From a phage: a stretch of DNA of 37,697 nt. A program made the position numbers and the translations under genes. Under the pieces are notes generated by a model that worked only from the letters and a program-made list of their open reading frames with translations, was not told the DNA's origin and did no database searches. The stretch lies in NCBI GenBank assembly GCA_020318295.1, contig GCA_020318295.1_4859.1, one strand, 5' to 3'. Shown piece by piece: positions 1,683 through 37,697 of the stretch (position 1 is the stretch's first letter; every line of letters begins with the position of its first letter).

Positions 1683-4600
1683 TTAGTTGATTTTAGCCGG
1701 CAAGGCTGGGACGTCTTCACCATCTAAGATGCGTCCGATATTCTCCCCACCACGATACCCGACAGCGTTGGTGGTTCCGATGCGCATGATAGAACCCACG
1801 ATACGTGCGTCGACGGAATCACGACCAAAGATAATGTCGAGTTCCTGCCCGTCTTCCGTTTTGTTGGTTCCATACATCACTTCCTGAACCGTCGTTTTCA
1901 GCTGGTTAGCAATAACCATCTTATCCGCTGCTGCCATCTCTACCCGGTGTGTGATGTAGAATCGGACACACAGGCTATTGTACGCTAACGGCACCCCCTC
2001 AACACGAAAATCACCGTTGACTCGACCGTCCTTCGGCTCGTCACGTTTGAGAGCCAGCGCAGTCTTCCGACGTATACGGTCGTATTTACGAACCATCTCC
2101 GCCAAAGACGGGGTCATATCTTCCACCTCGCCGTGGTAAACCACTTCGATTTTGTCGATAAACCCACGAACACCAGAGCGTGGTGCAAAGGAGCTTAACT
2201 CACGCAGCGTTTCCGCTGCTTCTTTACTGAACCCGCTCATATCGCCGGTCAGGTTGTCGGTGAAGGTGCATAGAATTGAATCCACGTCTACGTGGTCCCC
2301 TTCTTTTACCATCTCCAACAGGTTCTGGGTAAACGTCATTGTGACTTCTTTGAGTTTGGTAACATCGGCTTCAGCCTTAGCAGCGAACCGCTCACTAATG
2401 GCGTTGGAGTCCTCAATTACTTCTTCCCCTTCAATCAAAGCGACAGTTGCCAGTATCCCGTTTTTAAAACTGACCTGCGTTGGATCGTAGATGTCTGGTT
2501 CAAAGTGTTGTTCGTTGTACGTGATAACGGCACCGGCAGGGAGTTTATCTCCGCGCTTCCATTTCGTTACCAGAGTGTGTGGGTAGTAAGTCCCTTCGTG
2601 CGGACCGAACCAACGGCCCAGTGGGAAAGCTTCTTCCTCTCCGTCGTCGTATTTGATTTTAACGTGGTCGTTAAGAACCTCCACAATCTTGCCAGGTTTA
2701 TCGATTACGCGTGCGTGCTTCACAGAAGTACGGTGTGCCACGAACTTTTCTTGCTCGGTACGATACGGTGTGGTGGTTGCGCCAACACAACTGGTCGCAG
2801 AACCGAATTGAATCCCAACGAAGTTCTGACGCTTAGCATCGTCCATCAGGGTATCCGGCACCAAGCCATCAATAAACGACAGTGCCTCACCTGGCTTCAG
2901 TTTATCGAGGTCCTTTTTAAAGGTCGTGCCGTCCACGGTGTCGTAACGCGGATTGTTTGTTGCAAAGGCGGTGATACCTACATCGCCGTTATCGACCGTG
3001 TTACCGGAGACAATCCCCAGGTCGCTCGGTTGGAATTCACGGGTACTGTAGACCATGGTCTTGCGGTTACGACCACCTGTACCGCCCATGGTAACAACAT
3101 CTTTTTCTTTGATGTTCTGTACCGGGTTTGCGCCAGGAGCCAGCAGAACAGACGGGTCGGAGTTAATTGCACCCCACACCATGTCCTGCGTCAACTCAAA
3201 CTTACGATTCGAGTTAGGCGCGTTGTTGTAGTTACGCATCGCCCGCACCATTGCGGTGTAGATGTGATACGAAATACGTTGGTTCCCGATGAACATCATT
3301 TCGTCACCGTTAATTTCCGGTAACGTGTGGTCCGTCTGCAGCAGTTCATTAGAACGCTCCAGTAAGCCGATAAAGGTTTCCGGCTCGCCCATTTTCCTGA
3401 GGATACGCGCGTGCATGTCGTCAACAAATGCGGTCCGCATCAGTTTCAGCTCTTTGATGTAGCGTGGTGTTAGCCCATCTGCATCGCGTAACAGGTTCAG
3501 GTAAATGTCTTCCCGGTCAACTTCCGACTCGGTATACGTGGTAAAATGTTTAATGTAACGGTCTAAGCCGTTGACAATCATCCTCTGTTGATCGTTCTCG
3601 CAGACAATTGCAATTTTCGCATCCTGGAGACGAATAATGGAGTCGAACTGACCTTTATCGATACGTTGTCCGACAGAGAGAACCTCGTAACTGATACCAA
3701 AGTGTTTCAACATCCCGGTTAACCCGAGATAGTACGCAAACACAAAGCCCAGCGAGATTGATTTGCCCATCAGTGACAGTTCGGTCATTTCACGTGGAGC
3801 CTTAGAGGTGTCCACGCCAAAGACTTCGGCGAGCGTACCCAGTGGTTCGGTCTTATCCTTATCCACTCGATAGAGCTGGGAGTTTTTATCCATACCGACG
3901 ATGACATGACTCCGCGGTTTCTTCGCCACAGGTACCAGCTCGACACGGTCCGCGTCTGCCAGTTGCCCTTCGTTAAAGAATGCCGCTTTCTGTTTAATGT
4001 CAAAGTTCCATTGGTACCCAATTGCGTTGAACGCTGCTACACGACGTGCCACCTCGGTGTACTGACGCGGCAGTTTAGACAGCGGATCGAACACATTCGC
4101 CAGTTTTGCATCAGTGATTTCGGTGTTCTTTGGATCGACCGCGCGAGTAATAATCGCGTTAGTGAGCCAACGTCCGTAATCATTGACGACTTTATCACTG
4201 CGACGGACAAAGTTCTTCCCGTAGGCAGTGGTTAACGCTACAGTATCGTGGGACACTTTACGGATAGGAAGATCAACGCGCTGACGACGCATTGTATATT
4301 CTACACCATTCGCAACCCAAGTACCGTCTTCGGTTAATGCAGGAATTGAGAAACGTACCGTGGTTGGTTCTCCGCCAATCGGCTGAATACGCAACGTGTG
4401 GTGTTCGATATTCCCGGTAACGGAAATCTCTTTCTCAACAGTGTGATTGTGAATCGCCAAACCGAGACGCTGAGACGATGCTACTGCACCCAGAACATCT
4501 TTCGGGAAGATTTCCTGGTTGTACTGACGAATGATTTGGTCGGTGGTATTTTCCGCCCAGGCTTCATCCGTAACTAAGCGTTCAATCTTCTTAGGCTCGG

Positions 4601-5888
4601 CTTTAACTTCGAGTTTCTTCGGATCGATGGTCAGACCTTCGCCGTACGTCTCTTTAGGATTGTACGGGTTGGGTAAGTTTACGAAACGTTTAGAAGATTC
4701 GTTCAGAAACTGATACGCTTTGGCGGTGACGCGGCCCGCTTCTGCCAGGCGCTCAACTTCCTGTTTAATCACAGCATCGTGTGGGATGGTGCGTTCTACG
4801 ACGATGGTGGTTGGTTTGACATCTTCTTTCGGCGCTTCGATGACCAGATCTTCTTTCTCATCGAACTCATGATCGTTCAATGTATCGTCAACGTTGTCGC
4901 TTTGTGTTGCTTCATCGTCGACGATATCGAGGCTTTCTTCCGGTTTACTGGCAACGGTTTCAACAGCATCGTCGTCCTCTCCCAGATGTACGCGTTCATC
5001 CCCTTCCGGTGTAACGAACTCGTCATCTTCGTAGTCGGTAGACGGCGGTGTGGTCATCACCGTAGTCAGTGTACGGTAGAACATTCTGCCCATCTGCACG
5101 TCAGTCAAACGACCACCGGCAGACTTACGCATTCTTTCAATTACACCCATGTTCATGGATGTAAAACCACCGTTGTGTGTGAAGATAAAGTTCACACGAG
5201 ACAGCTGGTTCATGTCCATACCGTCGAACAGGGTTGCTTGCTGATCGCCGTAAGCCCAACCGAACAGTTCCAGTAACCACAGCAGGTTAAAGTCTTTAAA
5301 GTGTTCCAGTTTGGTTTTAACACGATCGTTATACGTCATTTTAAAACGATCGAAAGAAGGCAGTACGTTACCCAGTTCGATGATGTAGTAGTTCTGACGC
5401 ATGTACTCACGTGAGTCAGTTTTCATCTGGTTAGTTATCAGCAGCTGAATGTTGTGCAGACGTTCGTACCAGGACATCAGAGTATCAGGGTAGAAATAAT
5501 GCGGCAGCATCGGGGTGTAGTTTTCGATGAGCAGCACTTTCGGATCGGAACGTACCACGCCGTCTTCAATCATGCGACGAATACGACGGTTGTTACGATG
5601 GTACTGGAAGATTTGGCGCTCTTGACCAACAACCGGTTTCTTACGCGGGTGGCCAATAATGCCGTCTTCAGGCAGCTGGAAGTGGTGACGAATCATCGCC
5701 GGTTTTTCCAGCTGACCAAAACATGGTGTGGTTAACGGTGGTGCTAAAACCACCTGGTCTAAATCGATGGTGTGGTAGATAGAACCACGTGGGAGCTGGA
5801 GCTTCTCCAGCGGGATAATACGCGGACGACCGAACTCATCGGTCTTGCGCACGGTAAAGCGCTGGTTAAACTGTTTCAGAAAAATCAT
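1683..5888 (-). CDS. multisubunit RNA polymerase beta' subunit, C-terminal portion (1401 aa)
   Basis: N-terminus GRPRIIPLEKLQLPRGSIY resembles E. coli beta' GEPIIVPSQDVVLGLYY just after the catalytic loop; FIFTHNGG...RKSAGGRLTDVQMGR resembles the bridge-helix region (FISTHGARKG...TANSGYLTRRLVDVAQD); C-terminal ARIVGSIMRIGTTNAVGY resembles the beta' C-terminal block NVIVGRLIPAGTGYAY. Contains an acidic insertion (DYEDDEF...DDEATQSDNVDD) at roughly 4800..5050. Confidence 0.6.
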   Translation of the reverse strand: MIFLKQFNQRFTVRKTDEFGRPRIIPLEKLQLPRGSIYHTIDLDQVVLAPPLTTPCFGQLEKPAMIRHHFQLPEDGIIGHPRKKPVVGQERQIFQYHRNNRRIRRMIEDGVVRSDPKVLLIENYTPMLPHYFYPDTLMSWYERLHNIQLLITNQMKTDSREYMRQNYYIIELGNVLPSFDRFKMTYNDRVKTKLEHFKDFNLLWLLELFGWAYGDQQATLFDGMDMNQLSRVNFIFTHNGGFTSMNMGVIERMRKSAGGRLTDVQMGRMFYRTLTTVMTTPPSTDYEDDEFVTPEGDERVHLGEDDDAVETVASKPEESLDIVDDEATQSDNVDDTLNDHEFDEKEDLVIEAPKEDVKPTTIVVERTIPHDAVIKQEVERLAEAGRVTAKAYQFLNESSKRFVNLPNPYNPKETYGEGLTIDPKKLEVKAEPKKIERLVTDEAWAENTTDQIIRQYNQEIFPKDVLGAVASSQRLGLAIHNHTVEKEISVTGNIEHHTLRIQPIGGEPTTVRFSIPALTEDGTWVANGVEYTMRRQRVDLPIRKVSHDTVALTTAYGKNFVRRSDKVVNDYGRWLTNAIITRAVDPKNTEITDAKLANVFDPLSKLPRQYTEVARRVAAFNAIGYQWNFDIKQKAAFFNEGQLADADRVELVPVAKKPRSHVIVGMDKNSQLYRVDKDKTEPLGTLAEVFGVDTSKAPREMTELSLMGKSISLGFVFAYYLGLTGMLKHFGISYEVLSVGQRIDKGQFDSIIRLQDAKIAIVCENDQQRMIVNGLDRYIKHFTTYTESEVDREDIYLNLLRDADGLTPRYIKELKLMRTAFVDDMHARILRKMGEPETFIGLLERSNELLQTDHTLPEINGDEMMFIGNQRISYHIYTAMVRAMRNYNNAPNSNRKFELTQDMVWGAINSDPSVLLAPGANPVQNIKEKDVVTMGGTGGRNRKTMVYSTREFQPSDLGIVSGNTVDNGDVGITAFATNNPRYDTVDGTTFKKDLDKLKPGEALSFIDGLVPDTLMDDAKRQNFVGIQFGSATSCVGATTTPYRTEQEKFVAHRTSVKHARVIDKPGKIVEVLNDHVKIKYDDGEEEAFPLGRWFGPHEGTYYPHTLVTKWKRGDKLPAGAVITYNEQHFEPDIYDPTQVSFKNGILATVALIEGEEVIEDSNAISERFAAKAEADVTKLKEVTMTFTQNLLEMVKEGDHVDVDSILCTFTDNLTGDMSGFSKEAAETLRELSSFAPRSGVRGFIDKIEVVYHGEVEDMTPSLAEMVRKYDRIRRKTALALKRDEPKDGRVNGDFRVEGVPLAYNSLCVRFYITHRVEMAAADKMVIANQLKTTVQEVMYGTNKTEDGQELDIIFGRDSVDARIVGSIMRIGTTNAVGYRGGENIGRILDGEDVPALPAKIN

Positions 5889-5906: not shown

Positions 5907-7520
5907 TCATTTCAACAGCGCAGCAGTCGTTCTTTTAATCACGTTGTTAACCGGATTGATTTTGAAACTGCCGTCTGTTGCAAACCAGTAGTTTTTCGAA
6001 CTGACCCACTTCCGATTTTCCTCGAGCGCTTCGGTTGACATCGGGCAGTTTGCTGAGCCGGTGTCACCATCGTAGTCACCACCCAAGCCCCCTAATCGGG
6101 ATGGGTGCGGTGCCATGGATTCCACAAAGGTTTTCACGGTACGGTCAGGGAAGCTAATTGCACCCTTCTCTTTTAACGTGACCCAATCGTCTTCCAGTTC
6201 ATGCAAATAGAGGGAAGAGGTGGTGGTCTCCAATCTTATGGTCGAGGAGTAAGTCGAACCGCGTCCCGTAACCGGATAACGCGTGATGAACGAGAAGTAG
6301 TCATTCCAAATATCGTAACCTGACAAATAGAGGAGTTCCGCTAAGCTCAGTCCGCGGACAAGCTTACGGTCACGTCCTTCCGGCAGGTCTTCAATATCGT
6401 AAAAGATTTTGAAGCTGCGTTTGTCCTGGTAGATTAATGCCACGTAATGGTCCGGATCAATCATCAGCGGTTTATGTCGAAGCTCGCGCGCTTCCATTCT
6501 GTTGATGAGCGTTTCGATGCCATCGTCGGTAGTGAAAAGGTCATACACCCGCCCGGAGACTTCCAGGAACTCACGCTTGAGTGTTTTGGTGTTAACGCCG
6601 TATAAGTTACCGTCCCCTGCCCGGATGTTACTGAGGTAACGTTCACGGATGTGGTATTGAGCCACAGGCAGTAATGCCTTCAGGGTTTGGTACAAACCGA
6701 TACGGGTATCCGTTGGACGAATCGCATCTTCGCGACCCATGACCTTGGAACCGGTTGAGAATGAAGACAGTACGTTACGCGTACCGTTCATTAACTTACG
6801 TGACGTCACTTTACGACGTGCAAAACCACCTTTACCGTCTTGGATGTTGAAAAAGTACATCCAGATATCATTAAAGGTTTGTTGGAGCTTCCAGCGAACC
6901 GGGTCAGTCAGTTCCGTTCGCGTACTGCGGTCGGGGATTGCACGTGCCAGAGAAATCAGACGGCGGTAGAGTCCGCCAATCTCTTCTTCTTGGTCGCGGC
7001 CATCCTGACGAATGACCAAATCACGTAATCCCGCAGGCAGAACCAGCACATAGCGGCTGAGACTGACCGGACGGAACTTATTGAAGAAATCGACTGTCTC
7101 GTCGCGACGCATCGATTCGTTGCGTCCCGGTGTCAGTTGTTCGTAGTAGCGTAGGAAGAAGTTGAAGCCGGTGTCTGCACCTTTATCACTGGGCAGAGCC
7201 GGCTCGAAGTCTTTTTCTTTCTCATTCCAGATAGCGAATCGCTTCCCGGAACAGATTTCTTCGTACAGCTGTTTCAGCTGGAACAATGCCAAACAAACGG
7301 TCGGTGAAATGATATCCAGTTTGATATCAATGTACGAGAACGTTGAGTCTCGTGCTTCGCTCCCTGTGAGGCCAAAAATTTCGGTTGAATACAGTCCTTC
7401 AGGGTGAAAGTTTTTCGTCAGTCCCTGAAAGGTGTCTGTTGTTGTAACTGGTTTTAAATGCGACACCAGGGACTTGTTGACGTTTAACAAGTAAAAGTCA
7501 ACCCAGTTTAGCTTTCTCAC
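5907..7520 (-). CDS. multisubunit RNA polymerase beta' subunit, N-terminal portion with DxDGD catalytic motif (537 aa)
   Basis: YVLVLPAGLRDLV...DG...GGLYRRLISLA resembles E. coli beta' [20 protein letters not shown]...LYRRVINRN; GKGGFARRKVTSRKLMNGTRNV resembles [28 protein letters not shown] at 6063..6077 sits where NADFDGD does. GTG start with AGGAG 9 nt upstream. Confidence 0.7.
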   Translation of the reverse strand: MRKLNWVDFYLLNVNKSLVSHLKPVTTTDTFQGLTKNFHPEGLYSTEIFGLTGSEARDSTFSYIDIKLDIISPTVCLALFQLKQLYEEICSGKRFAIWNEKEKDFEPALPSDKGADTGFNFFLRYYEQLTPGRNESMRRDETVDFFNKFRPVSLSRYVLVLPAGLRDLVIRQDGRDQEEEIGGLYRRLISLARAIPDRSTRTELTDPVRWKLQQTFNDIWMYFFNIQDGKGGFARRKVTSRKLMNGTRNVLSSFSTGSKVMGREDAIRPTDTRIGLYQTLKALLPVAQYHIRERYLSNIRAGDGNLYGVNTKTLKREFLEVSGRVYDLFTTDDGIETLINRMEARELRHKPLMIDPDHYVALIYQDKRSFKIFYDIEDLPEGRDRKLVRGLSLAELLYLSGYDIWNDYFSFITRYPVTGRGSTYSSTIRLETTTSSLYLHELEDDWVTLKEKGAISFPDRTVKTFVESMAPHPSRLGGLGGDYDGDTGSANCPMSTEALEENRKWVSSKNYWFATDGSFKINPVNNVIKRTTAALLK

Positions 7521-14719: not shown

Positions 14720-16942
14720 GTGGAAGCAAGACAACTAAAAGATTCAGGATGGGTAACCGGCCTGTTTGGCGGTACAACCGCACAGCGCGATGAGCGCTTC
14801 CTGGGTTTGCGTCGTTACTCTAACGCGATGCTCTCGTTTGAAGATACCACGATGGGTGGTTCGCAAGCGTTAAATGCGCCGCCGCAGTTTACGATGTTTG
14901 CTGATCCGAGTTCAACAGGTGCCTTTGCACAACCTGATGCGGGTCGTGGCTCGTACTCAAAGTACGTTAAAGGTCAAGACCAACGTGGTTCCTATCGTCT
15001 AGGGACTTTCTATTACGAAGCTATTAACCAAAACAGTTTTTATCTTCATTGTCGTTTCGGTAAACCCCGATACATCGGGGTCGCTGCATTCTTCGCGAAT
15101 ATGTACGATTCCAACCTAGCGTACCTGGCACGCACGGGTGATTACCCAGGTATGTTACGTGCGATGGGGACGTATGTTGCCGCCGCAGCAATATGGGCTG
15201 CAGTAGGCACGGTTGCCTTTGCGGTTATTCTGATTACGCCACGTATGTTGAAGATGGTGCTGAACAAGCAGACTTCTCGCTACTACTACGTGAAACCGAC
15301 AATGCATTTGTATCTGCGCGCTGTGCAGAATATGGTCAATACCCAGTTAGTTTATCGCCGATTGGTACCAACGGGTGTGTTAGGGACTTTCCAGCTTGCT
15401 AATGCTGTAGATGGGTCTGAGAAAGGCGGTACTGCTAATAAGTACAACGGCGACCGCAAAGAGTGGTACTCCATGCTGCCAGAAATCTGGACAGCTGATG
15501 GTGAGTTCGATATCTATCGAATGATTAACCGCTACCAAACATTAGCCAACTACCAGGCGAAAACCATCGATAAAATTCGTAAAGAGTCGAGTAACGAAGA
15601 GGACATGGCTCGTCGTTTGCGAAACTTCTATCTGGAAGCGACGTACTCAACAACCCATTTGGAGAAAGCTGCGCAGTACGAGGTTTCTTTACGTAACCTT
15701 GAATACGTAGCCAAAGCCGGTAAAGGGTACGATGCCGGTTTTGAAAACGTCGATAACAAAGAAGACGAACTGGTAGCAGGGATGAACGGAAGCATTCAGG
15801 ATGCTCAGTCACAAGGAGGTAAAGCTGAAAACTTCGAAAACGAAGGTGATGCGCAACGTAAAGAGCTTGCCGAGCGTATGGCACAGGTTGAAAAGAACCA
15901 GGCTCAGGTTGCTAAAAGTCAGACCGAAGCAAACTCAATGGATGAGAATAATCTCGACATTGGGAAGATTGAAAACTGGATGGACCAAGGCCAGAAAGAA
16001 TCTGTCGGTAGCGTCTTCAAAGACTATATCGATATTTTAGAAGGCGCTATGGATGGGTTAACTTCGAACATCGCTTCGGAGATACGCAATGGTTCGCAGT
16101 GGATTACTTGGCGTGTTGATGGACGTGATACCGTAGGGCGTTCGTTCTCCAACACCACCAAAGAACCTGAAATCTCTGGCACGGTTAACTCTGCCACACA
16201 GAAAGCACGTTCTTTGGAAGTAAACCTCTCCGGTGGTAAGACTGGTTTCGACGCAGTCGATGGTCTCATTACTGGGTTGAAGTCCGCCTTTACAGGCGCA
16301 CTCGATTTCTTGCATTTATCAGGGATTATGTCACTGTACAACTCGTCGGTGATTGACTTCCCGGAAGTGTGGGACTCCTCAGACACCTCAGGTGACGATA
16401 TCTCGCTAAGTATTCCCCTTCGCTGTTGGTCGGGTAACGACTTAGATGTGTTTCAGGATCTGATTGTCCCGTTGTCGTTCTGGTTAGCGGCAGTTTGTCC
16501 GCTAGCAACCGGTAAACAATCGTTTACACACCCGTTCTATCTGGAATGTTATTCTCGCGGTCGTTATTCCATGCGTAATGCCATGGTAACTAACCTGAGT
16601 CTCCAGTTCGGTACAGGTGGTTTAGGTTGGCGTGCTGACGGTCTGCCGTTGTCGTGTGATATACAGGTAACTATTCGTGACCTGTCGCGCGTCATGTACA
16701 TGCCGATTGTAACTGATATTGGTGTGTTTGATGATGATAACAAGTTCAGTGAATTTATGTCTGTGTTGGGCGCTGCCACGCTTTACGAGCGTACCAACGG
16801 TATCGCGCAGGCTAAAATCAATGCGTCTATCTGGGCGCAGAACTGGGCAAGTGCTTGGTCGCAGGGTAGCATCGTCAACGCCGCCTTAGATATCATACCA
16901 GCCCGACAAATCGCGAACATTTTCCTACCACAAGCGCGTTAA
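14720..16942 (+). CDS. hypothetical protein, possible virion or membrane protein (about 740 aa; ORF track start 14681)
   Basis: Long ORF. I prefer the in-frame GTG at 14720, preceded by AGAGAGG plus a 6-nt spacer, over the track's GTG at 14681, which lies inside the hairpin. Contains a hydrophobic segment AAAAIWAAVGTVAFAVILITP. No recognisable catalytic motif. Confidence 0.6.
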   Translation: MEARQLKDSGWVTGLFGGTTAQRDERFLGLRRYSNAMLSFEDTTMGGSQALNAPPQFTMFADPSSTGAFAQPDAGRGSYSKYVKGQDQRGSYRLGTFYYEAINQNSFYLHCRFGKPRYIGVAAFFANMYDSNLAYLARTGDYPGMLRAMGTYVAAAAIWAAVGTVAFAVILITPRMLKMVLNKQTSRYYYVKPTMHLYLRAVQNMVNTQLVYRRLVPTGVLGTFQLANAVDGSEKGGTANKYNGDRKEWYSMLPEIWTADGEFDIYRMINRYQTLANYQAKTIDKIRKESSNEEDMARRLRNFYLEATYSTTHLEKAAQYEVSLRNLEYVAKAGKGYDAGFENVDNKEDELVAGMNGSIQDAQSQGGKAENFENEGDAQRKELAERMAQVEKNQAQVAKSQTEANSMDENNLDIGKIENWMDQGQKESVGSVFKDYIDILEGAMDGLTSNIASEIRNGSQWITWRVDGRDTVGRSFSNTTKEPEISGTVNSATQKARSLEVNLSGGKTGFDAVDGLITGLKSAFTGALDFLHLSGIMSLYNSSVIDFPEVWDSSDTSGDDISLSIPLRCWSGNDLDVFQDLIVPLSFWLAAVCPLATGKQSFTHPFYLECYSRGRYSMRNAMVTNLSLQFGTGGLGWRADGLPLSCDIQVTIRDLSRVMYMPIVTDIGVFDDDNKFSEFMSVLGAATLYERTNGIAQAKINASIWAQNWASAWSQGSIVNAALDIIPARQIANIFLPQAR

Positions 16943-22271: not shown

Positions 22272-23141
22272 TTATTTTCCTTTCAATAAATTCAAAATGT
22301 CTCTTAAATCATCGTTCGCACAAATGTTTACAGCGTTACCATCGAACTTAACATCAACACGAGGGTTACGATTGAACAACATTTGTTTTCTTACTATCCA
22401 CGGTTCAAAGTGCGCCTTGAGAAGCTCTTGCAGCTTTTCGTTCATAATGTCCTCCATCCGCAGCAATAGCTGCGGCATGGCGACTTCACCGTTATGTTTG
22501 GTTTGTAAATCGTTCGATGTGGCCAAAAGGCAATTTACAATAATGTCGTGAACTGACTCGTTGGTTTTGTACACCGTCTGATAGGTTTGTTTCGCCAAAT
22601 CGTCGTCGGATAACGGCAACGATGCTTTGAGCAGTTCGCCGAGCGTGCTTGTCGTTTCAGGCGTCTTAACGAGCTTACGATGGCCATTAAAAACAACACG
22701 GTCAAACTCCAGCCCGCAACGACACGCCAACAATTGATACTGTCTCATCAACTTACGAAGCAGCGCGCTATAACTCTTAGCGTCAGGTTCTGGTTCACGC
22801 AAAACAACACTAACGGTCTCGACTGCAATTAACATGAGCTGCTGCAGTTGTCCTTCTTTCGTGCCAGTTGTAGTACGAACAGACACCGCATCACTCAACG
22901 GAACGACAATATCACCGAGGTTAGAATGTGGACCGAGGTGTAGCAGCGCGGCAAATGTCCAAATCGATTCACCGATACCGGCAGCCACCTTTAAGTTATC
23001 CAGTTCATCGACACCTGCTGAGATCCTGCCGAGTGTGACGTAATACTTCACCAACTGACGTTCAGTCGCTTTCTGTTGGTAAATATCTGTCTTGCGAAAC
23101 CACTCTTCGACTGCCTGAACTTGCTGAACGATGCTAGGCAC
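22272..23141 (-). CDS. hypothetical protein (about 289 aa; ORF track extends to 23234)
   Basis: I prefer the in-frame GTG at 23141, preceded by GGGAGGAAG, which overlaps the upstream stop by only a few nt; the track's start at 23234 would overlap the upstream gene by 100 nt. Confidence 0.5.
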
Positions 23142-27699: not shown

Positions 27700-28230
27700 T
27701 TAGAGATAGTGTTCCACTATCACTTCTAACTCGCGGAAGATATGTGCGGTTTGATTAAACAGCGTATCCTGTTCGGGTGTTTGTTTATCAAATGCACGCT
27801 GATACAGTTCTAACATAGCGAAGACTGTGCGCAGTTTATCGCGCGCGACTTCAGGATCGGATGCACCGAAATAATGATCAAGCCATCGTGGTTCTGAACT
27901 CTCTCCTTTTCTATCGATTGCCTCAGGCAACTCTAACCAACGTTGATTGGGAATGTTGCTACTGGATACACGGTTATACTCAGAAATGAAGAATTCCAAT
28001 CGCTCCACCAACGTGTCAAAATCTCGAATACGTAATTCGAGTTGTCCACGCAATGAAAAAGGAAGGTATTCTTTCCCATTATATTCCAGAGGCTCTGTAA
28101 TGAGTTCTAAGCCCACCATCACTCTGTGCAGGGTGTTATGGGTATTCTTATGAAACTCAGCCTCCAAAGAGCGTCTGCGAGCTTCTACAGCCTTACGACG
28201 CAGGAGTGTTGAAAGCCATTTAAAAAGCAT
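27700..28230 (-). CDS. hypothetical protein (176 aa)
   Basis: ORF; first gene downstream of the conserved promoter-like motif. Confidence 0.55.
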   Translation of the reverse strand: MLFKWLSTLLRRKAVEARRRSLEAEFHKNTHNTLHRVMVGLELITEPLEYNGKEYLPFSLRGQLELRIRDFDTLVERLEFFISEYNRVSSSNIPNQRWLELPEAIDRKGESSEPRWLDHYFGASDPEVARDKLRTVFAMLELYQRAFDKQTPEQDTLFNQTAHIFRELEVIVEHYL

Positions 28231-28263
28231 AGGTGTTATCCTATTATGAGATGTTGTCTCGGA

Positions 28264-28293
28264 TAGATAATATCTGTCTGAGTTCTTTTTGAG
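28264..28293 (-). promoter_or_regulatory. putative phage promoter element, copy 1 (minus-strand read CTCAAAAAGAACTCAGACAGATATTATCTA)
   Basis: The 12-nt core AGATATTATCTA is identical to the copy at 35829..35840 and, in both, ends exactly 33 nt upstream of an ATG; 23 of 30 positions are identical across the extended motif. Confidence 0.5.
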
Positions 28294-28306
28294 ATGAGGT
28301 TATCCC

Positions 28307-28777
28307 ATGAGCGAAGAAGTGAAATACCAAGCGTTCGACGGAGATGTGGACAACGAAGATTCGCTTCTCCGCCAAACACAACAGCTACGCGTTAAGCTCG
28401 TCACGGATATGGTGAACGACGGTGAAGTACACAAAGACTTAAAAGCCGTCGACCGAATCGAACGCCTAATCAACGGCATCGACAAACAGGTCATGACGAA
28501 GCGGAAAATTAAAGCTGCTGAGAAAGGCGCTGAGGCGACTCAAGATTTGGCCAACAGTTTAAACGGCTTCTTAATGACCCGTGCAGGCGTTGGTATCAAA
28601 CGTCACGACGATGAAGAAGATTTAAATAACGGATACCAACCCACCGTCCCACAGATTGCCGCAGTACGGCCTCCGAAAGAAGGTGAGTTGGCACCAGTAG
28701 GCGAAAAGATTGACGTTGACCAGATCATGGCGTCTGCGTTTGCGAGTCGTCGTCCTGCTGATGACGACGAAGACTAA
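28307..28777 (+). CDS. hypothetical acidic protein (156 aa)
   Basis: ORF with GAGATGAGG upstream; lone plus-strand gene in a minus-strand block; its 3' end overlaps the convergent 242-aa gene by 53 nt. Confidence 0.5.
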   Translation: MSEEVKYQAFDGDVDNEDSLLRQTQQLRVKLVTDMVNDGEVHKDLKAVDRIERLINGIDKQVMTKRKIKAAEKGAEATQDLANSLNGFLMTRAGVGIKRHDDEEDLNNGYQPTVPQIAAVRPPKEGELAPVGEKIDVDQIMASAFASRRPADDDED

Positions 28778-32343: not shown

Positions 32344-33099
32344 ATGAATGTTAATCCACTTGCAGCGTTGTCGGGCTTTGTTGCCAAAGCATCCACGATT
32401 CTGCCTAAAGCCTTTAGCGGCTCTCAACAGGAACTCGCGCTGACCACCTATGACGACATGTCTGATGTGTCCAAGTGGATGCAGCAAGAGAAGTTTTTAA
32501 ACTTTACCGGAATGCTTGTACCCGTACCTCCGGGCTTCAACACGTATGTGATGGACCACATAGAACGGTTGGAATCTGTATGGGCTGTGCTCCAGAAGAT
32601 TCAGGAAGGGGTTTTAAGTCCCATCGACAAACGTTTCGGCGCGATGACACACGACCTGGGTATGCTGACACTGCCTATCGGATTTAAGTTCAAAGACCTG
32701 AACTACCCACTGAAAAACATTAACCCGAAAGACCTGGTTGAGAAACTGGCGAAGTCGTACACCAACAATGTGGTCGACCAGCGTGCGATTGAAAAGACCT
32801 ACCACAGTGCAGGTGAGATTGACGTTGCGTTTAATCGTGCCAAAGCGCTGAACCTGGAAGTGACTAAGAAACTCCAGAAAGGTATTGACCGTACAGTTGA
32901 AAGCATCAACGTCTCTGTAGACATTATCTCTAATTCACAAGTCCATCCTAATGTGGCGGCAGAGTTAGTGAAAATGGCTGACATGGGTGCTGACTGGGTT
33001 GAGCTGTTCGGACTGTTTATGAAACAGATTAATGAACTGACAGAATGCCTGAACGTAACCGGTGATCGCCTCAAGACCCTGAAAGCAAACAAAAAATAA
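32344..33099 (+). CDS. hypothetical protein (251 aa)
   Basis: ORF with GAGG upstream; lone plus-strand gene bounded by a divergent intergenic region and a bidirectional terminator. Confidence 0.55.
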   Translation: MNVNPLAALSGFVAKASTILPKAFSGSQQELALTTYDDMSDVSKWMQQEKFLNFTGMLVPVPPGFNTYVMDHIERLESVWAVLQKIQEGVLSPIDKRFGAMTHDLGMLTLPIGFKFKDLNYPLKNINPKDLVEKLAKSYTNNVVDQRAIEKTYHSAGEIDVAFNRAKALNLEVTKKLQKGIDRTVESINVSVDIISNSQVHPNVAAELVKMADMGADWVELFGLFMKQINELTECLNVTGDRLKTLKANKK

Positions 33100-33110: not shown

Positions 33111-33152
33111 TACCCACTCCCCTTACGGGAGTGGGTAGGCTTTATTTTATTT
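33111..33152. terminator. bidirectional rho-independent terminator between convergent genes
   Basis: Stem TACCCACTCCC / GGGAGTGGGTA with loop CTTAC, followed by GGCTTTATTTTATTT on the plus strand and preceded by an A-run that reads as a T-run on the minus strand. Confidence 0.7.
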
Positions 33153-33161
33153 CGGACCGAT

Positions 33162-33704
33162 TTAGAATTTACTGATAGTAAGTGGCTGCATTGGCTCGAC
33201 CACAATCAGTATTTCTTTCAGACGTGAAACGATATGCTCCCAGACCTGTGCTTCAAGGTGACGTAACATGGTGGTGAACTCACCCATGTACATCTCTTTA
33301 TACTCGTCGCGGTTGAGATGTTCCCACGCTTCTTTCAATGGGCCTGCTTCTGGACCAGACATCTTGATCATCATTTCGATGTCTTTCATCTCATCAAACG
33401 CTTTACCGACTTTATCAATAACCTCATCGGTTTTAAGTTCGAGCGAGAAACGACCCATCTTAGACTGCAGGAAGCCGTCTTCAATGTCTTCATCGTTGTA
33501 TTCAAAACAAGCAATACGTTGCGCGAGTTGATGAACTTCATTTACCGCGATGTTGACGTACGCCGCAGAGATAAGACCAGCGAGGTGCTGACGATCGATA
33601 TTCTTTGGTATCAGATAGTCTTCACACTTACGCTTAAACTCGAACAACGCCGCTGGAAATATTTCGCGAAATTCGTCATCGAGTAAATCAATGAATATTT
33701 TCAT
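33162..33704 (-). CDS. hypothetical protein (180 aa)
   Basis: ORF; ATGA overlap with the upstream gene. Confidence 0.55.
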   Translation of the reverse strand: MKIFIDLLDDEFREIFPAALFEFKRKCEDYLIPKNIDRQHLAGLISAAYVNIAVNEVHQLAQRIACFEYNDEDIEDGFLQSKMGRFSLELKTDEVIDKVGKAFDEMKDIEMMIKMSGPEAGPLKEAWEHLNRDEYKEMYMGEFTTMLRHLEAQVWEHIVSRLKEILIVVEPMQPLTISKF

Positions 33705-34240
33705 TCAGCAGGTTTCCCATATTTCTCGCCGAGATACAGTAGTTCACGACGACAGATAGCCAGCACCTTCATTTCCGCATCACGATACAGCTTGGTGATT
33801 TTGTCAATGATTGGCTGGTCAACGATATCAGACCATGTTACCGTGTCCGTGACGTTCGATGATTGCCCGTTAATGACCACAGCAACATATGTCTCGCCCA
33901 GGTTCTCTTGATGTAACCCCGCCAGTGATTCACCAACCTTATCAAAGGCTTCACTCAATAAGTCGGTGATTTGGTCCGTCCCTTCTACCAGTTCAAAACG
34001 ATGGGGATAGTTCAGAATATTGCGCAGCCGCGTGAACATACGTTCAATAAGCTGATTTACCATATCCCCAGTGTCGCAGATAGCCACATCTACGCCCGAA
34101 CCTATTTCGTCAGACAAACGATTTTCGTGGACGGCCAACGCATCGTGAAGTTCAAATTCCACGTCACGTTTTAATCCTAACAGAATTTCATCTAGCTGAC
34201 GTCTCGACTCCGACAGAGCGAAGTCAATTACGATTTGCAT
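33701..34240 (-). CDS. hypothetical protein (179 aa)
   Basis: ORF with AAGGAG upstream. Confidence 0.55.
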   Translation of the reverse strand: MQIVIDFALSESRRQLDEILLGLKRDVEFELHDALAVHENRLSDEIGSGVDVAICDTGDMVNQLIERMFTRLRNILNYPHRFELVEGTDQITDLLSEAFDKVGESLAGLHQENLGETYVAVVINGQSSNVTDTVTWSDIVDQPIIDKITKLYRDAEMKVLAICRRELLYLGEKYGKPAE

Positions 34241-34250
34241 CTAATGCTCC

Positions 34251-34724
34251 TTAAAAGTTACTTACCTCGGGCTGCGTATACCAGTATCTGCACGCTACGA
34301 GATCCACAACGTTATATTTCAGTTGTCCACCGTGCTGTGACGTGTCTGCCAATTCATGCGCAAGCTTGTACGCTAAGTCTTCACGGTTGTCGAGGATAAG
34401 CAACACAACACGCTGCACCTCATTAAAGATATCCGGTTCACGTAAACAACTGTAGCGCTCGCTAAGATGCTTAATAACGCCTTTATAAACATCTCCTGGT
34501 ACAGCAGTGCCATTTTCTGCTACGTGGAATGAAACAAGCACGATTTTAATTAAAATCTCGACAACCATGGAGTATATCATTCCACGGTTGCCGTTAATTT
34601 CCACACGCTTTAGATACTCTTGCAAGTCCATCAATGACTCGCTATACACCTTTAACATAGCGACCACCTCTAGTTGGTTGCCGGCCACACCCCTGGCGAT
34701 GGGATTGCATTGTATCCACGCCAT
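34251..34724 (-). CDS. hypothetical protein (157 aa; start may be the internal Met near 34658)
   Basis: ORF in operon context. Confidence 0.5.
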   Translation of the reverse strand: MAWIQCNPIARGVAGNQLEVVAMLKVYSESLMDLQEYLKRVEINGNRGMIYSMVVEILIKIVLVSFHVAENGTAVPGDVYKGVIKHLSERYSCLREPDIFNEVQRVVLLILDNREDLAYKLAHELADTSQHGGQLKYNVVDLVACRYWYTQPEVSNF

Positions 34725-35047
34725 TTCTTAATCACGACAAGGTTCGAGCCTGGAAGACCATCTAAATCAAAACCAACAGTAGCAACGACATCAACTTCAG
34801 CATCCAGCGATACCTGATCGCGACCCTGTGTTCTGAAATGCGCAAGAGACGCCAGTTTACCGCCAGTAATCGCAGTATCGCGAATAAGACGTGCCATATT
34901 GCGCATCTCTACTGTCACTTCTCCACGAATAGCGACACTCAGCGTTGCTTTATTTAACCAGGCTTCTTGTCCCGGTTCGACAATATAGAGAATCACACCT
35001 TCTTTGTAATACTGTTTTACCATCGTTTCAAATTCGTCTTGCGTCAT
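34670..35047 (-). CDS. hypothetical protein (125 aa)
   Basis: ORF with AAGGAG upstream. Confidence 0.5.
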   Translation of the reverse strand: MTQDEFETMVKQYYKEGVILYIVEPGQEAWLNKATLSVAIRGEVTVEMRNMARLIRDTAITGGKLASLAHFRTQGRDQVSLDAEVDVVATVGFDLDGLPGSNLVVIKKWRGYNAIPSPGVWPATN

Positions 35048-35060
35048 TTTAAATACTCCT

Positions 35061-35795
35061 TCAGTAGTTTAGTTTCTCAGCGACATCTTTACGGATGCGA
35101 CACATCACCACCATCGCACCATTCGGAATTTGGCTCACGCAGTTATCCGTGTAAAACTTACCTTCACACAGATAAAAGTCCAGACACATGGCATCGGTCA
35201 GTTCGTGCCACAGGGTGCCGAAACCATACTGCCAAGGGCCGGAATGAACGACATCGTAATCGCCATCAGTTATGCCAAATGCGGCAGTAGCGGAAGACCA
35301 CAGTGTTGAGGAGGTGGTATAAGTGTCATACCAGTAACCGAGCAGACGATGGTTACGACGTATCTCAGCTAACCGCTCGTACATTGGGATGAATACATCT
35401 TCCACCTGCGTGACAAAATCAGCCAGCATCAACTTTTCCGTAAACCACTCGATCCACGCAAAGATTTGTTCTTCAACGTCTTGTTGGCTTAACCCCGTGG
35501 CAGTAATGCCTTCTTCGTAGGTGTAACCTTCGTAGACGTCAACAACATTAATCTCTACATGTTCTAGCGTGAACAACCGTTCGGTGTTGATGCAGTCGTA
35601 CATCTCTTGTAACCACGCAGTGAAGACTTCTATACAGACGTTGATGGCTGTGTACTTGAATTCATCGCGCAGTGGATACCACTGTGGGTTATCCTTTAGT
35701 TCGTTCTTCGCGAACGCGGGCCAATGCTTTTCGAACAACGCTTCAAAGAACTGGGGCGTGAGGTTTAAAAGCACTGGCACTTCGACTTTAAGCAT
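35061..35795 (-). CDS. hypothetical protein (244 aa)
   Basis: ORF with AAGGAG upstream; first gene downstream of the second copy of the promoter-like motif. Confidence 0.55.
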   Translation of the reverse strand: MLKVEVPVLLNLTPQFFEALFEKHWPAFAKNELKDNPQWYPLRDEFKYTAINVCIEVFTAWLQEMYDCINTERLFTLEHVEINVVDVYEGYTYEEGITATGLSQQDVEEQIFAWIEWFTEKLMLADFVTQVEDVFIPMYERLAEIRRNHRLLGYWYDTYTTSSTLWSSATAAFGITDGDYDVVHSGPWQYGFGTLWHELTDAMCLDFYLCEGKFYTDNCVSQIPNGAMVVMCRIRKDVAEKLNY

Positions 35796-35828
35796 CGTGA
35801 ATAAATTCTCCTTAAGGTTACGTCCCTG

Positions 35829-35858
35829 TAGATAATATCTATCTCAGATTACTTTAAG
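35829..35858 (-). promoter_or_regulatory. putative phage promoter element, copy 2 (minus-strand read CTTAAAGTAATCTGAGATAGATATTATCTA)
   Basis: Same 12-nt core and the same 33-nt spacing to the ATG at 35795 as copy 1. Confidence 0.5.
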
Positions 35859-36589
35859 AGATGCAAGAAGCGTGCTGCCTGTTCTGTAAAGTGAAAATAC
35901 TCGATGGTATCAGGTTCGTCCGAGTGAATGTCATCCGGGTCCAGCAGGTAGCCCGAGATATCATCCGTTAAAACCCAAGCGTCTCCCTGCAGGAAAATAC
36001 CCATCGGTTTTTCTACCACAGGCATCACCAAGTCCGAATAAGAGTTACCTTCTGCTACCCTTACAATGTCTTCACACGGGTCAACAATATACAGGTTGCA
36101 GAGACTACGATCTTTAAGACTGCGATGAAACATCGCACGATCGTACCAAATAACCTGAGAACAATTATCTTCGTCACCCGCCACATCGACCAACTCTGTC
36201 CAGAAACGATGTAAGAACCAGTTCAACGCACCGGTTATTAGCTCGTTCGGTTTCAGCATTCTAACGTGTTCGTCGTACAACTCTTCCATTGTCCAGATTC
36301 GACATTGCTCACGATCGATTGTCGGTAGCGGAGGTATTTGCGGCGGGACTTGTTTAGGCATCGGTTCATCACATCTTGCATTGTAACGCGCAATTGTTTC
36401 AGTAACCAGCTCTGCCACAACATCACAAGCCGCTTCAAACCCCCACTTGTACAACACGTCGTAATCTTCCATGGGCGCAGCACCGAACTCACGGTTCGTT
36501 GCCATCCACGACATCCATCCGTATTGCTCCACACAGTTAATCAGACTTTGTGTGTGGAGCGTGAGCGATTCACTCACGACTCGCAACAT
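35849..36589 (-). CDS. hypothetical protein (about 246 aa; ORF track extends to 36649)
   Basis: I prefer the internal ATG at 36589, with AGAGG 7 nt upstream, which sits 1 nt from the upstream stop; the track's start would overlap the upstream gene by 59 nt. Confidence 0.5.
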   Translation of the reverse strand: MLRVVSESLTLHTQSLINCVEQYGWMSWMATNREFGAAPMEDYDVLYKWGFEAACDVVAELVTETIARYNARCDEPMPKQVPPQIPPLPTIDREQCRIWTMEELYDEHVRMLKPNELITGALNWFLHRFWTELVDVAGDEDNCSQVIWYDRAMFHRSLKDRSLCNLYIVDPCEDIVRVAEGNSYSDLVMPVVEKPMGIFLQGDAWVLTDDISGYLLDPDDIHSDEPDTIEYFHFTEQAARFLHLLK

Positions 36590-36590
36590 G

Positions 36591-37697
36591 TTACACCTCT
36601 TCTTCTCGCAGTATGCGACGGTTTGCGTAATACGCACACCACAACCCATGATACTCTTTACCGATATAGATTAAGAAGTAACGGATGTAGTATTTTTCAG
36701 GACGACACACCGCGATGTAATAACGGCCTTCCGGTTCTTTAATACGGTTGATTTCCGTACGCGATGGAATATCGATGCCGCGAGTCAAAATAACCGAGAC
36801 AGGTCGTTTACCCATCGGAAAGTCAATCTTTAACGTTATTGACTTATCGACGCTACGGTAGTATTCCTTGACAGGTTTACCTTTGTCGTCGAATAGCAAG
36901 TCGGTAATATCGTTTAAGACATAACCCTTTTCCTGATGCAGAACATCACGCAACGTTGTAGCGAGTTCGTCACGAATATCCAGCGCACGGTACGACAATA
37001 AGGGCGGGCGAAGCATTCTGGAGATGGCCAGGTCTTCAAAGAACCAGACGTTGGAATCTTCTCCACTGAAATGCATCTTGTCTGCTGGTAATCCATCACC
37101 TGCCACGTCAACGAACTTCTTACGTTTAACGAACTCATTGTTAACAACGCCGATTGGATCATACTGCCGCATCTTCGGTGTATCTTTCCATGCCAGGGCG
37201 GCGTGATTGTTTACAATCGTGTAGATGTTATCCCACGGTTGTTTAGTGAACATTACGGAAAAGTGTGCATCAGGAATCATTTTCCCAATAAACACCAAGT
37301 CGTCCTTGTTCTTTGCATGGTTGCCACCAAACATGTAATAGAAAGTTTCATCTTTCACTTTTACAGTAGGATGGTCCTCGTTCACCAACGGATAGCAATA
37401 TTTAACCGTACAAATCGGCGGATATGCCGCAAGGTTCATCCCAGCGGCGATGGGCTCTGGTTCCGCGGATGCAGGCAAATCATCCTTCGACCAGTACGGC
37501 TGATATGGAACACCGTCGTTGGTCGCGGTGATAGCTGAACCTTTTCTAGCCAATTCGTCCGCCCGGTCATTGCCGTAGTGTCCGGAGTGTCCTTTGATTT
37601 TGATAACCTTAACACCCCGTCCTTCTTTTTTCATCTGCTGTTTGATTTCCCAGATACGAACAATAAGTTCTTTGTTCGCCAGCGGAGTACCGTCAGC
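36591..37697 (-). CDS. protein with an RNase H-like motif followed by an unassigned C-terminal extension of about 310 aa (partial; start beyond window end)
   Basis: The minus frame stays open to the window edge. The translated edge reads ...NKELIVRIWEIKQQMKKEGRGVKVIKIKGHSGHYGNDRADELARKG, resembling the RNase HI C-terminal block (E. coli ...[25 protein letters not shown]); the following ~310 aa have no motif I recognise. Confidence 0.55.
   Translation of the reverse strand, partial: ADGTPLANKELIVRIWEIKQQMKKEGRGVKVIKIKGHSGHYGNDRADELARKGSAITATNDGVPYQPYWSKDDLPASAEPEPIAAGMNLAAYPPICTVKYCYPLVNEDHPTVKVKDETFYYMFGGNHAKNKDDLVFIGKMIPDAHFSVMFTKQPWDNIYTIVNNHAALAWKDTPKMRQYDPIGVVNNEFVKRKKFVDVAGDGLPADKMHFSGEDSNVWFFEDLAISRMLRPPLLSYRALDIRDELATTLRDVLHQEKGYVLNDITDLLFDDKGKPVKEYYRSVDKSITLKIDFPMGKRPVSVILTRGIDIPSRTEINRIKEPEGRYYIAVCRPEKYYIRYFLIYIGKEYHGLWCAYYANRRILREEEV

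Follow-up and report, generated by a model that had tools for sequence, protein, structure and literature searches.

In every polymerase-encoding jumbo phage, according to one review, bioinformatics can detect a motif ahead of the early operons, an AT-rich element of ~10 nt centred near -10, which was an early promoter wherever it was tested (PMC7598289). The mapped early promoter of phage AR9 has the form AAATATATATTAT-(6N)-G+1, and transcription in phiKZ and phiR1-37 also starts 6 nt past the element (PMC5312081). One predicted early promoter of AR9 with a single deviation was inactive (PMC5312081), so a motif match alone does not prove function. In phiKZ, all subunits of the non-virion RNA polymerase (nvRNAP) are early gene products (PMC4666361), and the subunits of the virion polymerase are middle gene products (PMC4666361; PMC13282480). 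The phiKZ-related phage SPN3US has two multisubunit RNA polymerases, a virion enzyme consisting of gp42, gp218, gp240, gp241 and gp244 and a non-virion enzyme that includes gp35 and gp77 (PMC5105663).

The window analysed here, a stretch of phage DNA of 37,697 nt, is 98-99% identical to the genomes of such Salmonella phages of the genus Seoulvirus as SPN3US, SPLA3, the SPFM series and phage 1252, and lies in reversed orientation relative to the SPN3US record; it is a Seoulvirus, that is, an SPN3US-like, phiKZ-related jumbo phage. Its ORFs 1683..5888 and 5907..7520 correspond to the virion polymerase subunits gp241 and gp240 of SPN3US. No transcripts, mapped 5' ends, time courses or in vitro transcription experiments were found in the literature for SPN3US or another Seoulvirus, and searching the literature with the motif strings described below returned nothing relevant. 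Here we describe a conserved element at a gene junction of this window which, by comparison with the mapped promoters of AR9 and phiKZ, is very probably an early promoter of the phiKZ-like type, recognised by the virion-packaged multisubunit RNA polymerase (vRNAP).

A promoter-like element at the end of a coding sequence

The junction separates two minus-strand genes, ORF 35849..36649, homologous to SPN3US_0208, and ORF 35061..35795, and reads ...CTC TTA AAG TAA TCTGAGATAGATATTATCTACAGGGACGTAACCTTAAGGAGAATTTATTCACG ATG on that strand. An earlier note, made from the letters of the window, had placed the second copy of a promoter-like motif at 35829-35858, and most of its description agrees with our analysis. 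The intergenic gap measures 53 nt (35848-35796), as the note had it, and includes a 33-nt spacer (35828-35796, the motif ending at 35829) that holds an AAGGAG Shine-Dalgarno sequence at 35813-35808 (-), 12 nt ahead of the ATG of the downstream gene (35795-35793, -). As the note stated, there is no terminator hairpin between the genes: a consensus scan of the minus strand over 35780-35930 found no GC-rich hairpin with a T run, ruling out a terminator at the junction. The repetition is also real, in that the other copy (copy 1) lies at 28264-28294 and the 17-mer GAGAYAGATATTATCTA occurs twice in the window with at most one mismatch. It is not a chance repeat, since only 0.11 matches would be expected even with three mismatches allowed. 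An RNA structure or processing hairpin was likewise ruled out, as the fold of 35780-35930 is no better than that of shuffled sequence (z = +0.49) and yields no stable hairpin.

Two details of the earlier description have to be amended. The motif was said to abut the stop codon; the TAA does lie at 35851-35849 (-), but the interval 35829-35858 actually contains both this codon and the two sense codons that precede it. The motif is present in that interval, but the conserved element is longer and extends over about 35862-35822 (-), corresponding to columns -37 to +4 of a 41-column family profile (see below). It thus overlaps the final 11 nt of the upstream gene and its stop codon, which occupies promoter positions -26 to -24.

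Profile R1 matches the junction at 35861-35824 (-) with 32.5 bits (E = 5e-9). The core, AGATATTATCT, spans 35830..35840 (-), or positions -15 to -5, and contains the invariant A-13, T-12, T-10 and A-8 of the family; the invariant A-29 is kept too, as is G+1. The junction copy deviates at -20, with G rather than C, and at -1, with G rather than T, and by its score in the second profile (R2) it ranks 18th of 24, below the family median. The predicted transcription start is the G at 35825 (-), 6 nt past ATATTAT, which corresponds to position 184063 of SPN3US and would give a leader of 30 nt. The orthologous SPN3US site (locus L005:34329-34363) scores 27.8 bits with profile R2, and the SPN3US records that we inspected carry no annotated regulatory feature at this junction. 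Copy 1 belongs to the same promoter family; it is located at 28256..28297 (-), ahead of ORF 27700..28230, scores 32.0 bits with profile R1 (E = 7.4e-9) and has a predicted leader of 30 nt as well. The 12-mer AGATATTATCTA is exactly the same in both window copies.

The upstream ORF itself, 35849..36649 (-), comprises 266 aa when delimited mechanically; its PHROG match begins at residue 21, and the SPN3US annotation has 246 aa. It is the internal ATG near 36589, immediately following the ribonuclease H-like gene upstream, that probably marks the true start.

A family of 24 co-oriented sites in SPN3US

The whole 240-kb SPN3US genome was scanned as five loci. The exact 11-mer AGATATTATCT occurs nine times, always on the gene-sense strand, against 0.14 occurrences expected on both strands from base composition, and alignment of the exact and one-mismatch sites exposed a much longer conserved block. 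A first profile, built on 13 sites from sequence only, added 11 more, all on the same strand and upstream of genes. The second profile, built on all 24 sites, returns these 24 again and adds none at E <=1, except for a weak reverse-strand match at copy 1.

The family consensus is A(-29)..TTTCAGATAGATATTATCT..G(+1), with TTTCAGATAGATATTATCT covering -23 to -5. Across the 24 sites, the upstream columns consist of an invariant A at -29, TTT at -23 to -21 and CAGATA at -20 to -15, followed in the core by G or T at -14 and ATATTA at -13 to -8; A-13, T-12, T-10 and A-8 are invariant in 24/24. Past the core, T or C is found at -7, C at -6, T at -5 and A at +2, and G occupies +1 in 23 of the 24 sites, the junction copy included. 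Each of the columns from -15 to -5 carries 1.1-2.0 bits. Each of the 24 sites has the orientation of the gene that follows it; 22 lie within annotated intergenic DNA, and the distance from site to start codon ranges from 26 to 261 nt, with a median of 53. Predicted leaders comparable to those of the two window copies (26-29 nt) are found at three other sites. The most distant member (SPN3US L002:25208-25248) is situated inside a gp68-like coding sequence, 261 nt before the next gene, and may be an intragenic promoter.

The sites fall into two loosely separated sub-variants. Variant A, GATAGATATTATCT, is a dyad and the majority form, and precedes polymerase and replication-type genes. Variant B, GATATATATTACCTAGGTGAGA, also found as GATATATATTAC(C/T)TAGGTGAGA, precedes clusters of small genes. 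A few of the 24 sites are A/B hybrids.

Several members serve the genes of the non-virion polymerase. Sites precede the clusters with RefSeq tags gp244-243, gp232-231 and gp190-189 (gp22-23, gp34-35 and gp76-77 in the original numbering), and one precedes the gene of a protein homologous to phiKZ gp68 (BLASTP E = 2e-13), which is the fifth nvRNAP subunit. None of the 24 sites lies directly upstream of the virion polymerase genes gp42, gp218, gp240, gp241 and gp244. Two genes are preceded by tandem copies: 93 nt apart before RefSeq tag gp244, upstream of a non-virion polymerase gene (SPN3US L002:15596-15636 and 15689-15729), and 198 nt apart before RefSeq tag gp190, just past the major head gene (SPN3US L003:22568-22608 and 22766-22806). 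After the first gp190 copy, an unannotated ORF of 27 codons with a good ribosome-binding site is present at L003 22641-22724. A BLASTP comparison of the protein of SPN3US RefSeq tag gp244 with the phiKZ chimallin gp54 was not significant (E = 0.67), and the two are not claimed to be orthologues.

Comparison with phiKZ, AR9 and N4

The SPN3US family fits the reviewed description of a ~10-nt AT-rich element centred near -10. SPN3US and AR9 agree in the ATATTAT block and in the 6-nt distance from it to a G, the mapped start in AR9 and the predicted one in SPN3US; the upstream part is AAATAT in AR9 versus TTTCAGATAG in SPN3US. The AR9 promoters were mapped by dRNA-seq and primer extension, and AR9 differs from SPN3US in having uracil-containing DNA and no phage nucleus.

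As in phiKZ, the AT-rich element around -10 is extended and highly conserved in SPN3US and has a T/A-rich stretch upstream, and its predicted start lies 6 nt downstream. Both genomes hold tens of copies (in phiKZ 28-32 early sites, which the injected virion polymerase reads), also upstream of non-virion polymerase genes, and the sequence common to the two is TTT(C/G)AGAT-n-(T/G)ATATTA(C/T). When 50 kb of phiKZ were scanned with a profile derived exclusively from SPN3US, sense-strand intergenic sites of the form TTTGAGATnTATATTAC-6N-G were found before PHIKZ054, PHIKZ058.1, PHIKZ068 and PHIKZ043. The first of these sites scored 18.8 bits (E = 1e-4); for PHIKZ054, a primary start that carries the early motif is reported from mapping (PMC8244752). 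The two phages differ in that the majority form of SPN3US is GATAGATATTATCT and not GATnTATATTAC, which makes the SPN3US core a dyad, and in the conserved GnGA downstream in SPN3US. An exact variant-A core, TAGATATTATCT, is present in phiKZ (L011:4895-4911) after PHIKZ041.3, facing a convergent gene; with E = 0.11, this match may be due to chance.

In N4, too, an injected polymerase transcribes the early genes, among them that of a second phage polymerase. However, the N4 enzyme is a single-subunit polymerase that reads a DNA hairpin, whereas the SPN3US enzyme is a split multisubunit one and the junction has no stable hairpin.

Conservation of the junction site

The site is found at the same gene junction, with gene order kept, in SPAsTU and pEa_SNUABM_29 (Seoulvirus) and in Asesino and phiEaH2 (Erskinevirus). 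The DNA of the former two is about 67% identical to the window; for the latter two, similarity at the DNA level can be traced no further than part of the upstream genes. The motif precedes the gp209 homologue in all four relatives, with profile scores of 20-25 bits each. At this junction, the core A(G/A)ATAGAT(A/G)TTATCT is conserved in the relatives and the surrounding bases differ, and the ribosome-binding block ACCTTAAGGAG is invariant in five related phages.

In the Erskinevirus sites (Asesino L009 4795-4831; phiEaH2 L010 4795-4829), the TAG stop of the upstream gene falls within the promoter core, AAA-TAG-ATATTATCT, and gene end and promoter overlap by about 20 nt. Were the motif not under selection, it would be difficult to account for a promoter and a gene end that use the same bases.

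The predicted early operon

The first gene that the element would serve, ORF 35061..35795 (-), encodes a 244-aa homologue of SPN3US_0209 (phrog_8219), and the homologues of SPN3US_0210-0213 at 33162..35047 (-) make up the rest of the predicted operon. Searches of Pfam and PHROGs assigned no function to the served genes SPN3US_0209-0213. A GC-rich hairpin of 11 bp, TACCCACTCCC/GGGAGTGGGTA, at 33111-33137, with T-rich tracts on both sides, sits between the convergent genes 33162..33704 (-) and 32344..33099 (+). It is likely a bidirectional terminator and the probable end of the operon.

The five genes that lie upstream in this array lack the early motif. Three of the genes in the upstream part of the array, SPN3US_0206-0208, are preceded by a strong terminator and lack a motif copy. 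This suggests that the junction site most likely starts a separate early unit, SPN3US_0209-0213, and sets its timing rather than boosting a unit that is already transcribed. The earlier proposal of an internal promoter is, therefore, retained as to a minus-strand promoter without a preceding terminator, for which the 24-site family, the cross-genus conservation and the match to the mapped AR9 and phiKZ early promoters provide strong comparative support, but its boosting role is probably wrong, early timing being likelier. As no terminator lies ahead of the site, read-through from upstream would be possible later.

Just outside the window, at SPN3US L005:31277-31363, there is a terminator hairpin, CTCCCTCTTACC-TTCG-GGTAAGAGGGA, with a T run. 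The sequence GTGATATATAATCTCGTGGAGAG, after this hairpin and before SPN3US_0206, resembles the early motif but has an A in place of the invariant T at -10, and could represent another promoter class.

By analogy with phiKZ and AR9, we propose that the vRNAP, injected together with the DNA, would bind the element at 35862-35822 through the extended AT-rich TTTCAGATAGATATTATCT (-23 to -5) and the invariant A-29, and would initiate at the conserved G at 35825 (-), six nt past ATATTAT. The resulting mRNA would consist of the 30-nt leader with its strong ribosome-binding site and the five small genes SPN3US_0209-0213, and would terminate at the hairpin 33111-33137. In this way, the 3' half of the co-directional array would be given an early expression time, and read-through from the upstream genes could contribute transcripts later.

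Alternative explanations

The motif most likely belongs to the promoters that the phage reads with the RNA polymerase of its virion, rather than being a generic or host promoter. A host sigma-70 promoter with TATTAT as its -10 box would be suggested by the fact that this AT-rich hexamer, about 7 nt before the predicted start, is one position off TATAAT, with a G located 6-7 nt downstream. However, a consensus scan found no such site on the minus strand of the junction, a -35 box is lacking (CTCTTA, the hexamer located 17 bp further up, shares 2 of 6 positions with TTGACA when read by eye), as is a TG extension, and the pattern of conservation is unlike that of sigma-70 contacts: conservation is highest from -20 to -13, within the would-be spacer, where sigma-70 makes no base-specific contacts. 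Given also that phiKZ-type phages develop independently of the host polymerase (PMC7598289; PMC13282480), a host promoter is barely conceivable here. The near-perfect inverted repeat formed by the 11-bp core could alternatively be an operator, the dyad AGATA-T-TATCT being bound by a dimeric phage regulator and the promoter being elsewhere or absent, in line with the weak score of copy 1 on the reverse strand (15.8 bits). Yet the dyad is broken by T at -14 in 7 of the 24 sites and by C at -7 in 7 of 24, its central T is invariant and asymmetric, and the related phiKZ sites are not dyads. The strict polarity towards the next gene (24/24) and the conservation that reaches asymmetrically to A-29 and, at a fixed 6-nt distance, to G+1 also speak against an operator, which we consider extremely unlikely.

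That the junction carries an inactive copy of the motif is very unlikely as well, although a silent predicted early promoter does exist in AR9 (PMC5312081) and the score of the junction site lies in the lower half of the family. All invariant positions are retained at the junction, and the position is conserved across two genera despite diverged flanks, even where this requires bases to be shared with the end of the upstream gene, stop codon included. A further reading, which we regard as unlikely, is that of a real phage promoter of another temporal class, delayed-early or middle, used by the non-virion or a modified virion polymerase. The loose split of the family is compatible with this, in that variant B is the one closest to the phiKZ early core TATATTAC, whereas the junction site is a variant A site and stays so at this junction in other genera; moreover, the reading of the phiKZ middle promoters is not settled in the literature (PMC4666361). 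Against it, hybrid sites link variants A and B into a continuum, and the element bears little resemblance to the middle and late motifs of phiKZ (TACT at -22; TATG at the start; PMC7598289; PMC8244752). Variant A sites, furthermore, precede the non-virion polymerase genes, which that enzyme cannot be the first to transcribe, and this disfavours another class.

We also considered whether variant A could be a separately regulated promoter subclass, for example a delayed-early one that is additionally bound by a dimeric phage protein for shut-off or timing, with copy 1 perhaps bidirectional and variant B immediate-early; this is a doubtful proposition, though one with some chance of being correct. 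On the opposite strand of copy 1 (28251-28297), ATAATAT-6N-G is found, with the G at 28280; the leader up to the divergent gene, which starts at 28307, would be 27 nt long. This suggests that copy 1 is possibly a two-way promoter. In this reverse reading, an A takes the place of the invariant T at -10. The junction site (copy 2) has no reverse-strand profile match.

We thus return to an early promoter of the vRNAP as the preferred reading of the junction element. From the observed motif family, its orientation, positions and conservation, and its likeness to the mapped early promoters of AR9 and phiKZ, we infer the polymerase, start point, timing and operon limits at the junction; activity, polymerase and timing are assigned by analogy.

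Implications for SPN3US-type phages

This kind of element is already known, and the current understanding of early transcription in such phages is unchanged by our results. The SPN3US motif may already be shown in the work of Lavysh et al. 2016. The points that are mildly unusual are the two sub-variants, the dyad of the majority form and the overlap of promoter and coding sequence, of which the junction serves as an illustration, with a promoter packed into the end of a gene.

For SPN3US-type phages, which serve as a genetic model of jumbo phages that form a nucleus, the analysis provides a map of 24 predicted early promoters with predicted starts. It also points to an early-promoter grammar common to Salmonella and Erwinia phages, phiKZ and AR9. 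The genes gp209-213 are predicted to be early and are, for that reason, candidates for a role in host take-over or in setting up the phage nucleus.
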